DNA from: Escherichia coli | GTDB taxonomy: Bacteria > Pseudomonadota > Gammaproteobacteria > Enterobacterales > Enterobacteriaceae | Reading direction: 5' to 3' (one strand) | Length of the DNA stretch: 64,000 bases | Assembly: GCF_003019035.1 (NCBI RefSeq) | Contig: NZ_CP027447.1 | Part shown: positions 9,432 to 52,147 of the stretch, piece after piece | Layout of the letters: every line of letters starts with the position of its first letter | How positions within the stretch are numbered: the stretch's first letter is position 1 | Translations under genes and position numbers: made by a program | The notes under the pieces: generated by a model | What the model was told of the DNA's origin: nothing | What the model saw: the letters and a program-made list of their open reading frames with translations, nothing else | Databases searched by the model: none

Positions 9432-10349
9432 TTACTTCGTCCACCCTTTTTGTTTCAGGTAGTCGGCAGCCACTTTTTTGGCATCCAGTCCTTCAACTGC
9501 AATGCTGGCATTCAGTTGCTGCAATGTTTTTGCATCGAGGCTGGCGAAGACTGGCTGTAGCCACTGTGCCATTTGCGGATACTCCTTCAGCACCGACTCA
9601 CGCACCACTGGTGCAGGCGCGTAGATAGGCTGCACGCCTTGCGGATCGCTTAAGGTTTGCAACCCCAGTGCCGCGACCGGACCGTCAGTGCCGTAAGCCA
9701 TTGCGGCATTAACGCCAGAAGTTTGCTGGGCAGCGGCCTTGATCGTTACCGCCGTGTCGCCACCAGCCAGTGACAGCAACTGATCCTGACCGAGCTTAAA
9801 GCCATAGGCTTTTTCAAAGGCGGGTAACGCATCGGCGCGTTCGATAAACTCTGCTGAGGCAGCCAGTTTGAAGGTGCCACCCTCTTTCAGATAACGACTC
9901 AGGTCAGCAAGCGAAGTGAGTTTGTTTTTCTCTGCCACATCCTGACGCACGGCGATGGTCCAGGTGTTATTTGCAGGCGCGGGCGTCAGCCAGATTAACT
10001 TGTTTTGCTCTGCATCGAGTTTTTTGACTTTCTCATAGCCTTGCTGCGCGTTTTTCCATGCCGTATCGTTTTCATCTTTAAAGAAAAACGCGCCATTGCC
10101 AGTATATTCCGGATAGATATCCAGCTCACCAGAAGTGATCGCCCCGCGCACTACGGGAGTCGTTCCCAATTGCACTTTATTTACCGTAGGAACGCCGTGA
10201 CTTTCCAGCACCTGCAAAATGATATTGCCGAGCAGCGCGCCTTCGGTATCGATTTTTGAACCGACTTTAACGGGGGAAGCCGCGTGCAGCGGCAGGCTCA
10301 CGGCTGCCAACAAAACCAGTGAACCTGCCCAGACCTTTGAGAGTGGCAT
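9432..10349 (-). CDS. osmF: Periplasmic substrate-binding protein OsmF (YehZ), 305 aa
   Basis: Signal peptide then glycine-betaine-binding-like fold; operon with yehYXW. Confidence 0.9.
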   Translation of the reverse strand: MPLSKVWAGSLVLLAAVSLPLHAASPVKVGSKIDTEGALLGNIILQVLESHGVPTVNKVQLGTTPVVRGAITSGELDIYPEYTGNGAFFFKDENDTAWKNAQQGYEKVKKLDAEQNKLIWLTPAPANNTWTIAVRQDVAEKNKLTSLADLSRYLKEGGTFKLAASAEFIERADALPAFEKAYGFKLGQDQLLSLAGGDTAVTIKAAAQQTSGVNAAMAYGTDGPVAALGLQTLSDPQGVQPIYAPAPVVRESVLKEYPQMAQWLQPVFASLDAKTLQQLNASIAVEGLDAKKVAADYLKQKGWTK

Positions 10350-18119: not shown

Positions 18120-19556
18120 TCAGCGTTTGTAACCCCCGCCCAGCGCACCGGTGAGTTGAATGGAAGCATCCAGCCACTGTCCCTGCAAGAGCAGACCATT
18201 GGCCCGCTCACGCAGCGCGGGGATTCTGGCTTCGCTGACGCGGGAACCAGCAATGATGCCCGCGTTAAAGCGCGCCTGCGCAAGACCTACCACACGCAAG
18301 GCATCGTGCTCAATTTGCGCCTGATGCTGGTTTTTCTCCGCCAGTGTCTGAACCTGGCTGGCCGCCCGCGCCACGTCATTTACCGCTTCAACCACCGCTT
18401 TGTTGTAGCTGGCGATAGACAAGTTGCTTTCGGCTTTTGCAATATCGAGGTTGGCGTTAAGACGACCACTATCGAAAATGGGTAGCGTCAGGCCTGCCGT
18501 AACGCCCATTTGCTGCGCGGAATGACGGAACAGATCGCTTAAGTGCAACGCATCCTGTTGCAGGAAGGCCATCAGGTTGATGTCAGGATAAAATGCCGCT
18601 TTTGCCGCATCAATAGTGCTTAACGATGACTCAACGTACCAGTGCGCCGCCTGCAAATCTGCCCGCCGGGCCAGTAAGGAGTACCCCAGTTCATCAGGAA
18701 GCTGGCTTGCCACTTTCGGCAACGCGACCGGATTAAGCTTCAATGCCTTTGTCTGGTGATTTGTAAGTGCGCTTAACCGTGCCTCAATAATTTTCATTTT
18801 CCCCGCGACATCGTTGAGCTGCTGCCGGGTTTTGCTGGCATTAATATCGGTTTCCACACCTTCAACTGCAGAAGTAATCCCGTTCTGATATAGCTGGCGA
18901 TCGGTGGCGATAATGGTGTTCTGCTCTTTTTCGATTTGCTGTAAGACCGTGTTTAACGCCGCCTGGGTTTGCCACTCCCAGTACAGGCGGGCTACGCTGC
19001 CAGCCAGCAATTGGCGGGTTTGCTCGCGTTCCGCCGCCCGTGCTTTAACCGTACCGAGGCGAGCAGTAACCTCCGCCCGATTCTTTCCCCAGATATCGAG
19101 ATGCCAGCCCGCCGTTAAGCCAAAAGTACCGTTGGTGTACCACGGACCGGTCGTACCTGCGGCAGGATCGTTCAGAGCAAACGGCCCCATTAACCCTTCT
19201 GCAGACATTTTTTGCCGCTCCATATCCGCAGAAAAGTCGATCTGCGGACCATCCTGAGTGGCAACTGCCTTCGCCTGGGCTTCAGCCAGCTGAATGCGCT
19301 GTTCAGCCACCTGCATATCCGGTGCGTTCTGTAGTGCGTTATTAATTAATGAGGTGAGTTGATTATCGTGATACTCCAGCCACCATTGGCTGTCTGGCCA
19401 ACCATTTTTCAGCGCCGTGGGTAATGCGGTGTCAACTTGTGTCGCGGGTGTTTGCTGGCTTAACGCCTGGCGGGTTTCATGCATAGGCGCACACCCGGCC
19501 AGCATCAGTAACAGCGGAAAACAGGCGATGGCTGGATAAAAAGAATCACGATTCAT
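18120..19556 (-). CDS. mdtQ: Outer membrane efflux factor (OMF/TolC-like lipoprotein) MdtQ, apparently intact, 478 aa
   Basis: Uninterrupted ORF; start at MNRDSFYPAIACFPLLLMLAGC (lipoprotein signal, lipobox LAGC); OMF family. Confidence 0.8.
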   Translation of the reverse strand: MNRDSFYPAIACFPLLLMLAGCAPMHETRQALSQQTPATQVDTALPTALKNGWPDSQWWLEYHDNQLTSLINNALQNAPDMQVAEQRIQLAEAQAKAVATQDGPQIDFSADMERQKMSAEGLMGPFALNDPAAGTTGPWYTNGTFGLTAGWHLDIWGKNRAEVTARLGTVKARAAEREQTRQLLAGSVARLYWEWQTQAALNTVLQQIEKEQNTIIATDRQLYQNGITSAVEGVETDINASKTRQQLNDVAGKMKIIEARLSALTNHQTKALKLNPVALPKVASQLPDELGYSLLARRADLQAAHWYVESSLSTIDAAKAAFYPDINLMAFLQQDALHLSDLFRHSAQQMGVTAGLTLPIFDSGRLNANLDIAKAESNLSIASYNKAVVEAVNDVARAASQVQTLAEKNQHQAQIEHDALRVVGLAQARFNAGIIAGSRVSEARIPALRERANGLLLQGQWLDASIQLTGALGGGYKR

Positions 19557-19779
19557 GGGGGAATAATCAGGTAAGAAAAGGTGCGCGGAGATTACCGTGT
19601 GTTGCGATATATTTTTTAGTTTCGCGTGGCAATACATCAGTGGCAATAAAACGACATATCCAGAAAAATATACACTAAGCGAATGATATCTTCCGATTTA
19701 TCTTAATCGTTTATGAATAGCGGCAAAGGGCTTCGTTTTTTCCTATACTTATTCAGCACTCACAAATAAAGGAACGCCA

Positions 19780-19863
19780 ATGAAAATTATACTCTGGGCT
19801 GTATTGATTATTTTCCTGATTGGGCTACTGGTGGTGACTGGCGTATTTAAGATGATATTTTAA
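19780..19863 (+). CDS. yohP: Small membrane protein YohP, 27 aa (MKIILWAVLIIFLIGLLVVTGVFKMIF)
   Basis: Read directly from sequence; below the ORF-track cutoff; Shine-Dalgarno-like AAAGGAA upstream; single TM helix. Confidence 0.65.
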   Translation: MKIILWAVLIIFLIGLLVVTGVFKMIF

Positions 19864-19967
19864 AAATCAGATATGGCATATAAGTTGTCAGGTCAGTAAC
19901 TCGATATTTTGTGTACTTGATTTACAAACAGCTCCGGTGTTGGTGGCGTCAAAATCGCTGAAGCGTT

Positions 19968-20140
19968 CCCCGAAGGCCGGGGCAGCCCACATGGATGTGG
20001 GCTGAGGGCGCGTCTTACAAGGACGTTACCTCGCGCCCGACCCGGTAGCCGAAGGGGATAAGCTGAAGGTACCGCGCAGCGGCGATTTTGTTCGCCAGAG
20101 CCCGGGGGTGCAGGGGGAGGAGGCGATTGTCCTCCCCCTG
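19968..20140. other. GC-rich, hairpin-dense intergenic element between yohP and dusC (at least four strong inverted repeats)
   Basis: Hairpins read directly: CCCCG-5nt-CGGGG (19968-19982); CAGCCCACAT-GG-ATGTGGGCTG (19983-20004); GGGCGCG-19nt-CGCGCCC (20006-20038); CAGGGGGAGGA-8nt-TCCTCCCCCTG (20111-20140). Confidence 0.4.
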
Positions 20141-20230
20141 CGCGCTCCTTGCGCCAGTGGCAATATGTGGCTTAGCTCATGAAAGGAGCGCAACAAGATG
20201 ATGAAGCTAAATAAGCGATTCATTGTCTCA

Positions 20231-20265
20231 GATAAGCTGCGATTCCACTATTATCGCAGCTTATC
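20231..20265. other. 13-bp perfect inverted repeat (GATAAGCTGCGAT-9nt-ATCGCAGCTTATC) spanning the dusC stop codon
   Basis: Seen in sequence; right arm encodes the last codons of dusC, left arm lies just 3' of the stop; no U-run on either strand so not a classical intrinsic terminator. Confidence 0.4.
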
Positions 20266-21201
20266 GATATCAATTGCCTGAATAGCCCTTGCAATATCAG
20301 GGGAATTATTCAACACCCGAACATGCTGAAATAATTCTGTTGCTTCATCGTATTCTTTACGCAAATAACTCAACCACTGTTTAATCCGCGCTACGTGATA
20401 TAACCCGGTATCGCCCTGCTTTTCCAGACGGGTATATTTTTGCAGCAAAGCAACCACCTCCGGCCACGGCATTCGCGGTTCGTTATATTTCACCACACGG
20501 CTCAGGTTGGGAATATTGAGCGCCCCGCGACCAATCATCACCGCGTCACAGCCGCTGATCGCCATACACTGTTGCGCGCTCTGCCAGTCCCAGATTTCAC
20601 CGTTGGCAATCACCGGAATATTCAGCCGTTGGCGAATCTCACCAATCGCCTGCCAATCAATATGCTCCGCGCGGTAACCCTGCTCTTTTGTCCGCCCATG
20701 CACCACCAGCTCCGTAGCGCCAGCCTGTTGAACCGCATCGGCGATTTCAAATTTCTTCTCACCGCTGTCCCAGCCCAGACGCACTTTCACACTGACGGGC
20801 AAATGCGCCGGTACAGCTTCGCGCATCGCTTTTGCACCCTGATAGATGAGTTCAGGATCTTTGAGTAACGTCGCCCCACCGCCGCTACCGTTAACCGTTT
20901 TCGACGGGCAGCCGCAATTGAGATCCACGCCCCAGGAACCTAACTCGACTGCACGGGCGGCGTTCTCTGCCAGCCATTGTGGGAACTGGCCTAACAACTG
21001 CACGCGCACCAGCGTACCGGATGGTGTCCGGCTGGCGTTTTGTAGCTCAGGGCAAATGCGATGAAAGACTTTTACCGGCAGCAGTTGATCCACCACGCGG
21101 ACAAACTCGGTGATGCACAGATCGTAGTCGTTAACTTCGGTCAGTAATTCCCGCACCAGAGAGTCAAGCACACCCTCCATCGGAGCCAGTAACACACGCA
21201 T
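20251..21201 (-). CDS. dusC: tRNA-dihydrouridine synthase C (DusC), 315 aa
   Basis: ORF trimmed to [11 protein letters not shown] start; Dus family TIM barrel. Confidence 0.9.
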
Positions 21202-22659: not shown

Positions 22660-24655
<1,996 letters not shown>

Positions 24656-50896: not shown

Positions 50897-52147
50897 TCAA
50901 GCTAAACCAATAAAGAACCCGGCAATGGTCGCGCTCATCAGGTTGGAAAGCGTTGCTGCTGCCAGCGCCCGTAAACCAAGCTGAGCGATTTCCGGTGCGC
51001 GTTTTGGCGAAATAGCCGAAAATGCCCCAACGACAACACCGATAGAACCAAAGTTAGCAAAACCACAAAGCGCAAAGGAGATAATCGCAATGGTTTTCAC
51101 TTCCAGTGTACCACCCGTTTGCAGATACGGAGAGAAACTCAGGTAAGCGACAAATTCGTTTATCGCCAGTTTCTGCCCAATCAGGCTACCGGCAAGGTTA
51201 GCATCGCTCCAGTCTACTCCCATGATCCACGCCAGTGGCGCCAGCACATAGCCAAAAATACTTTCCAGAGAAGCATTGGCGAAACCAAACCAGCCGCCAA
51301 TTCCGCCGATAATGCCGTTGATCAGCGCAATAATTGCAACAAACGCCATTACCACCGTCGCTACACCAGCGGCGATTTTCAGCCCGGTCATTGCACCGCT
51401 CGCCGCCGCTTCGATAAAGCTTTTTGGCGGCGTTTCGCTGAACGACAGGTTTTCAAATGTCACCTGTGAAGGCTCGGTTGCTGGGCTAAGAATACGCGCA
51501 AACAAAATACCGCCGGGGATAGCCATCAGCGATGCCGCTAACAGGTAGTCAATCGGCACGCCCATTCCGGCATAACCAATCATCATCGAACCGGCAATGG
51601 ACGCCATCCCGCTACAAATTGCGGTAAACAACTCGTTGCGATTCATGCGATCGATAAACGGTTTTACGATCGCCGGGATCTCGTTTTGCCCGAGGAAAAT
51701 AGTAGTGACTGCAACAAAAGACTCGATTTTGCTGATGTTAAGGGCTTTCTGAAAAATGCTGCCAAGAATACGAATCAGCAGCCCCATCACGCCAATGTAG
51801 TACAGCAGACTGATGAGCGCAGTAACGAAGATAATCGCCGGAAGTACGCGAAAGGCGAAGATAAAACCCGCACCGTCAAACAAGACATCCATTTTCGGCC
51901 CAACCAGCGAACCAAAAATGAAGGCGCTACCGGCATCACTGTAAGACATCACTTTATGAACGCCTAATGCCGCCTGTTCTACTGCCCATTTTCCCGGTGG
52001 GAAGTAGAGCATGATGCCACCAATAGCAATTTGCAGCAGCAGCGCGGCTCCAACCGTGCGCAAACTGATGCTCTTTTTATTCACTGACAACAGAAATGCT
52101 ATTGCCAGTAACACCACCATCCCCACAACACTTCTCATTATATCCAT
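50897..52147 (-). CDS. psuT: NupC-family nucleoside (putative pseudouridine) transporter PsuT (YeiM), 416 aa
   Basis: CNT family, paralogue of nupX; operon with psuG and psuK. Confidence 0.88.
   Translation of the reverse strand: MDIMRSVVGMVVLLAIAFLLSVNKKSISLRTVGAALLLQIAIGGIMLYFPPGKWAVEQAALGVHKVMSYSDAGSAFIFGSLVGPKMDVLFDGAGFIFAFRVLPAIIFVTALISLLYYIGVMGLLIRILGSIFQKALNISKIESFVAVTTIFLGQNEIPAIVKPFIDRMNRNELFTAICSGMASIAGSMMIGYAGMGVPIDYLLAASLMAIPGGILFARILSPATEPSQVTFENLSFSETPPKSFIEAAASGAMTGLKIAAGVATVVMAFVAIIALINGIIGGIGGWFGFANASLESIFGYVLAPLAWIMGVDWSDANLAGSLIGQKLAINEFVAYLSFSPYLQTGGTLEVKTIAIISFALCGFANFGSIGVVVGAFSAISPKRAPEIAQLGLRALAAATLSNLMSATIAGFFIGLA

Follow-up and report, generated by a model that had tools for sequence, protein, structure and literature searches.

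A 27-codon reading frame overlapping the end of dusC in Escherichia coli is very probably incidental to the orientation of a known TRIP1/RRS repeat

The closest described relatives of the locus analysed here are Rudd's TRIP1 repeats, with TRIP1a at aqpZ-lysO and TRIP1c at yohG-yohI/dusC, for which a survey of 6,725 genomes by Li et al. 2024 distinguished five types and found the repeat in either orientation at dusC and at lysO (PMC10888264). TRIP1 was renamed the Replication Risk Sequence (RRS) by Pham et al. 2024, who described a pair of 222-bp elements, one to each side of dif at a distance of about 650 kb, flanking the Ter macrodomain in K-12, and within them a G-quadruplex-forming run, 5'-GGGGGTGCAGGGGGCGGCGG-3' (PMC11194060). 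In K-12, the G-quadruplex strand of the RRS serves as template for the lagging strand and gives rise to post-replication gaps (PMC11194060); no gaps formed with the RRS in leading-strand orientation in engineered strains (Pham et al., PMC11194060). The TRIP1c/RRS-dusC repeat and both of its orientations are already known from this literature. The same two papers (PMC11194060, PMC10888264) make no mention of a Shine-Dalgarno (SD)-like stem at the TRIP1 end which, together with an ATG, opens reading frames that depend on the flanking sequence.

Such a frame lies between yohP and dusC in the window, by which we mean the whole 64-kb stretch of E. coli DNA analysed here, and the initial annotation had proposed it as a small protein, a leader peptide or a chance open reading frame (ORF). 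The sequence-level description given there holds throughout: translation confirmed the 27-codon ORF, the SD, spacer and tandem ATG lie as described, the 13-nt arms of the inverted repeat within it are 100% complementary, and the convergent overlap with dusC, put at about 30 nt, is 31 nt. No RefSeq record checked annotates the ORF, PGAP calling only yohP and dusC in the interval. The coordinates of the features are collected in Table 1.

Table 1. Features of the yohP-dusC interval and its flanks, in window coordinates.
Feature	Position	Strand	Remarks
mdtQ	18120-19646	-	Flanking gene
yohP, 27-aa small membrane protein	19780-19863	+	NCBIfam NF011345, 67.3 bits; RefSeq annotation
Allele-specific left flank	19866-19902		Unlike K-12 allele; most variable segment, 32% variable sites
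Extended TRIP1c / RRS-dusC repeat	19903-20205	+	Orientation opposite to K-12; ~91% identity to K-12 TRIP1a over 303 bp
Equivalent of Li/Rudd TRIP1	19929-20194		By alignment
Equivalent of 222-bp RRS core	19938-20159		By alignment
TwoAYGGAY-like domain	19949-20088	+	Long-range stem closing two hairpins, loops AUGGAU / AAGGAC; first hairpin arms 19983-19992 / 19995-20004; RF01731 28.4 bits, E=0.056
G-rich run GGGGGTGCAGGGGGAGGAGG and GC hairpin	20104-20141	+	Run 20104-20123; arms 20110-20121 / 20130-20141
Terminal stem of TRIP1	20142-20191	+	GCGCTCCTT (20142-20150) pairs with AAGGAGCGC (20183-20191); 9 nt, 100% complementary
SD, AAGGAG	20183-20188	+	9-nt spacer, then ATGATG at 20198-20203
Hairpin in which both AUG codons pair with ORF sequence downstream	20196-20228	+	Predicted, -10.6 kcal/mol
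27-codon ORF	20198-20281	+	Codons 1-3 repeat tail; 4-17 allele-specific spacer; 18-27 and stop overlap dusC
Inverted repeat across dusC stop codon	20231-20265		13 bp, -20.6 kcal/mol; arms 20231-20243 / 20253-20265, loop 9 nt; right arm = dusC codons D-K-L-R-stop
dusC, tRNA-dihydrouridine(16) synthase	20251-21201	-	RefSeq annotation of 100%-identical strain SCU-301

Within the window, an SD followed by an ATG is a fairly specific signal. The pattern AAGGAG-N4-10-ATG occurs 9 times, against 2.55 expected from shuffled sequence, and only six ATG-initiated ORFs of at least 27 aa have a strong SD; four of them are long (278-571 aa) and were presumed to be genes without individual look-up, and one is YohO. 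For the ORF at the dusC end, this signal can be traced to the adjacent repeat, and in our reading the ORF is very probably incidental, a consequence of the way a known repeat is oriented in this allele; it may be weakly translated, it shows no sign of function, and it is best left unannotated.

The repeat itself is readily identified. It aligns to K-12 TRIP1a with 91.4-91.8% identity over its 303 bp, the core alignment being free of gaps, and to K-12 TRIP1c as the reverse complement; in K-12, correspondingly, lysO and aqpZ enclose one copy, and yohP and dusC another, in reverse complement. Its position between yohG (mdtQ)/yohP on one side and yohI (dusC) on the other is that of TRIP1c. The repeat is matched in 5,425 of 5,426 complete E. 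coli genomes, at a median of 4 places per genome, and its predicted RNA folds have z=-8.4 for the + strand and -6.6 for the - strand. These comparisons show the window repeat to be the published TRIP1c, also called RRS-dusC, a GC-rich, highly structured, intergenic element of ~270-300 bp. It shares with the described TRIP1/RRS the sequence family, the locus, the hairpins, the G-rich run and the terminal stem, and differs in having the orientation opposite to K-12 and two C>A changes in the G-quadruplex (G4) motif. In a comparison of sequence alone, GGGGGTGCAGGGGGAGGAGG differs from GGGGGTGCAGGGGGCGGCGG by these 2 substitutions and keeps its G-tract pattern; set against the K-12 copies, the hairpin has matching changes that compensate them.

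To place the SD and ATG within the family, we compared 33 copies of the repeat. A scan of a genome collection gave 34 stretches from Escherichia species and Kluyvera (8-9 or more copies per genome); chance matches and contaminants were removed, copies fetched earlier were added, and TRIP1e was left out. Among the removed sequences, the matches in metagenome-assembled genomes (Clostridia, Lachnospiraceae, Kuenenia and an unclassified proteobacterium) were chance 19-mers with no TRIP1 tail, and those in Pseudobutyrivibrio and Bacillus assemblies were tiny contigs identical to E. coli TRIP1b, which we attribute to contamination. Of these copies, 30 carry the motif [A/G]GGAGCGCAA and 3 depart from it by one base; among the 33 are TRIP1b, TRIP1d and 17 Kluyvera copies, where no start codon follows. 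Since the copies were retrieved by a 19-mer that fixes the 5' strand of the stem, which would bias a covariation test, support for the stem comes from the conservation of its 3' strand in these start-less copies and from one compensatory C/G pair in TRIP1b, GCGCTCCCT pairing with AGGGAGCGC.

The SD is found at 20183 because AAGGAGCGC is the 3' strand of the stem that closes the repeat. An ATG at SD spacing occurs only in the Escherichia TRIP1a/c-type tail, CAACA[A/G]GATGA, where the bases following the stem are CAACAAGATGATGA and supply the ATG. Judged by the copies compared, the strong SD is a structural feature of the TRIP1/RRS repeat and the ATG is part of its tail. What is read after the tail is set by the flank, and the resulting frames, of 3, 5, 7, 9, 12 or 26-27 codons, are unrelated to one another: MRD in K-12 TRIP1c, MNQYI and MLSSQIE in other Escherichia copies, MMNQHITTS in TRIP1a and MLNTHIELKIPL in the inverted TRIP1a of O157:H7, each followed by a stop, with 26-27 codons at the yohP-dusC junction allele only. 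The window ORF has, beyond the tail, 45 nt of allele-specific spacer and then the antisense of the final nine dusC codons up to a TGA. In the window allele the repeat is oriented with its tail towards dusC, and it is the ATG of the tail that opens this frame.

The allele that makes this possible is widespread. The full yohP-dusC stretch was found in 1,998 genomes, and a tighter query of the junction recovered 2,001 of the 5,426; the K-12-type allele, from which the ORF is absent, is carried by 63% of E. coli genomes. Homology between K-12-type genomes and the window ends at 19865, and the C-terminus of DusC reads ...IDIDKLR in the window allele versus ...IDIEKL in K-12. A simple in-place inversion was considered as the origin of the window allele and rejected, because both flanks and the final dusC codons differ and because the tail resembles TRIP1a more than it does K-12 TRIP1c; reversed alleles with different flanks and altered gene ends are therefore not simple in-place flips. 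At the lysO locus, the copy of O157:H7 is reversed too, and that of the ST131-like strain AZ 189 has the K-12 orientation and has lost both AYGGAY hairpins.

The orientation also bears on the replication context of the repeat. GC skew on the + strand of the window is negative in each of 8 blocks, and the gene order is that of K-12; together with the G-rich run on the + strand, this places the run on the leading-strand template. The window is thus an orientation variant, distinct from the gap-forming arrangement of K-12, in which the G4 strand is the lagging-strand template. A G-run on the leading-strand template does not exclude the window repeat from the TRIP1/RRS sequence family.

Whether ribosomes ever meet the SD depends on a + strand transcript and on its fold. 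Scans returned nothing promoter-like on the + strand between 19600 and 20600, and nothing resembling a terminator in the yohP-dusC interval. The 13-bp hairpin at the dusC stop codon was rejected as an intrinsic terminator: the scan was negative, its outer pairs are not maintained, and because no T-run follows it, it is not a canonical terminator. If a + strand transcript reaches the ORF, yohP, the co-directional gene upstream, is its likely source, most plausibly by read-through. In such a transcript the SD and the AUG are predicted to be base-paired. The local hairpin of the terminal stem, which contains the SD, has a predicted stability of -22.5 kcal/mol, base-pair probabilities leave the AUG unpaired with a probability of 0.01 in three sequence contexts, and the ribosome-binding site, with a mean unpaired probability of 0.21-0.31, ranks last in accessibility among seven SD-ATG starts in two of these contexts and last but one in the third. 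The sequestered site and the empty promoter scan would both suit the view that the ORF is pure coincidence, never seen by ribosomes, either as the + strand is untranscribed past TRIP1 or as the ribosome-binding site is fully sequestered. We hold this to be very improbable, given that no terminator separates yohP from the ORF and that a paralogous start in identical context gives a ribosome signal despite neighbouring genes that lie on the opposite strand.

That paralogous start is the tail ORF of TRIP1a, the lysO copy, which has the same SD, spacer and ATGATG as the window ORF and whose two neighbouring genes both lie on the strand opposite to it. It corresponds to ATGATGAATCAACATATAACAACATCTTAA, encoding MMNQHITTS and a stop, for which Table S1 of Stringer et al. 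2021, a re-analysis of BL21 Ribo-RET data, gives an initiation-enriched footprint of 2.2 RPM. The list is permissive (7,936 starts, 11.7% FDR) and includes for comparison ybjD at 51 RPM and thrA at 394; most such ORFs were attributed by Stringer et al. 2021 to pervasive translation. A Ribo-RET peak in an identical context indicates that the site can engage ribosomes at a low level, so that low-level pervasive translation of the window ORF would be plausible. The window ORF resembles the pervasively translated small ORFs of E. coli (Stringer et al. 2021, Ribo-RET plus Ribo-Api) in being short, unconserved and unannotated with an SD-ATG start, and its 9-codon paralogue from TRIP1a is itself in their IERF list; it differs in that the 27-codon version does not exist in the profiled BL21 and K-12 strains. 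BW25113, the PIRT-seq strain, likewise has the K-12 allele and is thus without the 27-codon ORF. On the reading of the ORF as incidental, the tail may, if the + strand is transcribed, capture a few initiating ribosomes, much like the weak start at the lysO copy in BL21, and the 27-aa basic peptide would be a product of pervasive translation at most, without function.

The same Ribo-RET signal could be taken to favour a lineage-restricted small protein, born de novo at the junction of the repeat tail with the dusC end and kept by weak purifying selection. In a comparison of eleven alleles, SCU-301 and E69 stood beside six E. coli lineages, ST131 and O157:H7 among them, and beside E. sp. E1V33 and E. 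whittamii. Some 1,928 E. coli genomes, ~99% of carriers, keep the frame open, and so do E69, E. whittamii and E. sp. E1V33. Of the 14 substitutions in codons 2-27, 7 are synonymous, 6 are non-synonymous and 1 is nonsense; O157:H7 differs by 4 synonymous changes and 1 non-synonymous one. The synonymous excess is mild, and purifying selection on the peptide is not significant: when substitutions of the same types were re-placed at random, 7 or more were synonymous with P=0.08, a value that rests on only 14 substitutions. The comparison of synonymous with non-synonymous changes, which the initial annotation had named as a check, accordingly did not reach significance. A frame would also stay open after 14 random substitutions in 45% of cases by chance, so that openness is not evidence of selection.

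Other observations stand against a selected protein. The disruption of the frame in close relatives that had been named as speaking against a gene was found, in a small minority: 7 genomes carry a nonsense change at codon 6 (K6 to stop, AAG>TAG, as in strain ET450), and this allele persists in isolates from pigs, poultry, a migratory bird, a frog, sediment and a human. In two species, E. whittamii and E. sp. E1V33, ACG stands in place of the first ATG. Variable sites make up 21% of the part of the ORF outside dusC, twice the 10% of either neighbour, TRIP1 or the dusC overlap, and dusC on the other strand dictates 10 of the 27 codons. The SD and AUG are, moreover, predicted to be paired, as described above. 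No homologue came to light either: the peptide and three variants had no exact match in a collection of 15 billion proteins, the peptide matched no family in NCBIfam/Pfam, in which the controls YohP and YohO from the window do match, and a full-text literature search for the peptide string returned nothing. It is absent from the Ribo-seq small-gene supplements for EHEC Sakai (Hücker 2017), a screen that is uninformative on this ORF because its minimum of 30 aa exceeds 27 aa, and from the entries listed in an Enterobacteriaceae microproteome census, in which gene-overlapping ORFs were probably excluded. Taken with the mild synonymous excess and the Ribo-RET signal on the other side, these results make a selected de novo protein unlikely.

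Of the options in the initial annotation, a leader peptide or attenuator is not supported: the + strand downstream is antisense to dusC for 950 nt and the next + gene, yohJ, lies ~1.1 kb off (yohJ/yohK are also carried in the window, beyond dusC). A functional small protein is unlikely, and a chance or by-product ORF is the option that the results support.

The act of translation could matter even where the peptide does not, if ribosomes melted the 13-bp hairpin or the TRIP1 fold and so altered the stability of the yohP 3'-UTR or the expression of dusC. The ORF does pass exactly through the 13-bp hairpin, repeats close to stop codons, namely REP elements, reportedly affect translation and mRNA decay, and the paralogous TRIP1a site shows its weak initiation signal. 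Although the inner CTGCGA/TCGCAG of this hairpin is kept across the compared alleles, its outer pairs decay across strains: O157:H7, H15-type strains, E69 and E. whittamii have lost them with no compensating change. The whole arrangement is absent from 63% of E. coli genomes, and at other copies of the repeat the 3-12-codon ORFs stop before any structure. We consider such a role highly improbable.

Three further systems invite comparison. The LDR and QUAD repeat families, first catalogued in the same 1999 screen as TRIP1, contain type I toxin-antitoxin loci (Ldr/Rdl in LDR, Ibs/Sib in QUAD) which, like the window locus, combine a small ORF with an intergenic repeat family and an SD sequestered in mRNA structure. 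The window ORF differs in that the ORF body lies outside the repeat and is different at every copy, and in that the peptide is basic and hydrophilic, with 6 K/R and 1 D and no transmembrane segment, and no conserved antisense RNA is evident. The initial annotation had dismissed a type I toxin, and we agree, the peptide having neither a hydrophobic stretch nor a family match. The antisense overlapping genes of EHEC (such as laoB, ano, asa and pop) share with it an unannotated, partly antisense ORF in O157:H7-type genomes; here, however, the overlap is only 31 nt and the ORF is much shorter, below the 30-aa cut-off of the intergenic Sakai screen.

On the side of structured RNAs, an Rfam search of the repeat returned a sub-threshold match to TwoAYGGAY (RF01731) only. 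The likeness lies in the adjacent hairpins with a long-range closing stem, in the AUGGAU of loop 1 and in the taxa of the Rfam family, which include gamma-proteobacteria; the differences are a score of 28.4 bits, below the gathering threshold of 43, a second loop that reads AAGGAC and not AYGGAY, and the additional G4 hairpin and terminal stem of TRIP1. The Kluyvera neighbours score 41.9 and 39.4 bits against RF01731, also below the gathering threshold of 43.

As a gene candidate, the ORF matters little, because the structure of a published repeat explains its strong SD. The SD-ATG of the TRIP1/RRS tail is nevertheless a clean example of how repeats may seed pervasive translation, and a trap for predictors of small ORFs. 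It is conceivable, if quite unlikely, that the Escherichia TRIP1/RRS tail acts as a portable translation-initiation module and that its inversion at dusC gave a translated and retained 27-aa product; were this so, a structural DNA repeat would have given rise de novo to a gene that overlaps the end of dusC. For the replication biology of the species, the orientation has a broader bearing. The G-rich strand of RRS-dusC lies on the leading-strand template in 2,001 of 5,426 complete genomes, and since the RRS is naturally reversed in these lineages and reversed RRS in engineered strains gave no gaps, they would offer ready-made tests of the 'topological relief valve' hypothesis.

In the window, RRS-dusC, the copy of the Replication Risk Sequence (RRS, or TRIP1) between yohP and dusC, naturally lies in the 'reverse' orientation (see table for coordinates); among 5,426 complete E. 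coli genomes, 2,001 have the same allele. Judged from GC skew, which is negative in all eight 8-kb blocks of the window, its G4-like strand is on the leading-strand template. In engineered K-12 strains with a reverse-oriented RRS, gap formation is reported to be absent (PMC11194060). The alleles also differ at the C-terminus of DusC, which reads ...IDIDKLR-stop in the window (20251-20265) versus ...IDIEKL-stop in K-12 (L002, 2037-2050), and in the 13-bp hairpin that spans the stop codon, the left arm is the window allele's dusC end copied in inverted form; the polymorphic cassette thus extends into dusC. On the minus strand, mdtQ (yohG; 18120-19646) has an intact reading frame in the window and in SCU-301, and is a frameshifted pseudogene in K-12.

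At TRIP1a, the copy between lysO and aqpZ, a 9-codon ORF lies in the tail, and its start shows a weak initiation peak of 2.2 RPM in BL21 Ribo-RET data (Stringer et al. Table S1), where a second weak peak marks MINSPENMKTQSLQR-stop, antisense to the lysO start; together, these weak peaks imply that TRIP1a is transcribed across on the plus strand. Elsewhere in the window, AAGGAG-N4-10-ATG also occurs at 23905-23919 (+), 51075-51092 (+) and 9570-9587 (-), and none of these three sites opens an ATG-initiated frame that reaches 27 amino acids; the first of them, with its ATG at 23917, seems to fall inside sanA in a different frame.

TRIP1a itself varies between strains. In O157:H7 F6667 (lysO-aqpZ intergenic region, L050 939-1395) it is inverted relative to K-12, as RRS-dusC is, and therefore both RRS copies are reversed; here the flanks differ and the tail ORF has 12 codons. 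SCU-125 (L051) carries a full copy oriented as in K-12, and in the ST131-like AZ 189 (L047) a 79-bp deletion has removed both AYGGAY hairpins.

Coordinates, scores and sizes of TRIP1-related features
Feature	Location	Strand	Score or size
RRS-dusC	window 19903-20205		
G-rich run of RRS-dusC	window 20104-20123	+	
TRIP1a tail ORF, MMNQHITTS-stop	NC_000913.3 about 915285-915314 (L049)	+	9 codons
TwoAYGGAY match	window 19949-20088		28.4 bits (sub-threshold)
TwoAYGGAY match, Kluyvera	L015 6021-6084		41.9 bits (sub-threshold)
TwoAYGGAY match, Kluyvera	L029 933-995		39.4 bits (sub-threshold)
TRIP1b-identical contig, Pseudobutyrivibrio xylanivorans	L008		432 bp
TRIP1b-identical contig, Bacillus sp.	L040		583 bp

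TRIP1/RRS resembles the Rfam RNA motif TwoAYGGAY (RF01731) below threshold, with all scores under the gathering score of 43 bits; the Kluyvera matches lie on the opposite strand, adjoining TRIP1-like copies. Such a link was not found in PMC11194060 or PMC10888264.

E. coli TRIP1b (putP-efeU region) is identical to tiny low-coverage contigs in two non-enterobacterial assemblies, almost certainly through contamination. In Kluyvera, TRIP1-like elements are multi-copy, with at least nine copies in genomosp. 1 and at least eight in K. cryocrescens (L010-L018, L023-L030), frequently at contig ends; these copies carry an additional small 3' hairpin (GGCTGGAAAGCC) and lack a start codon. The pattern suggests that the TRIP1 family has proliferated in the manner of MITEs.
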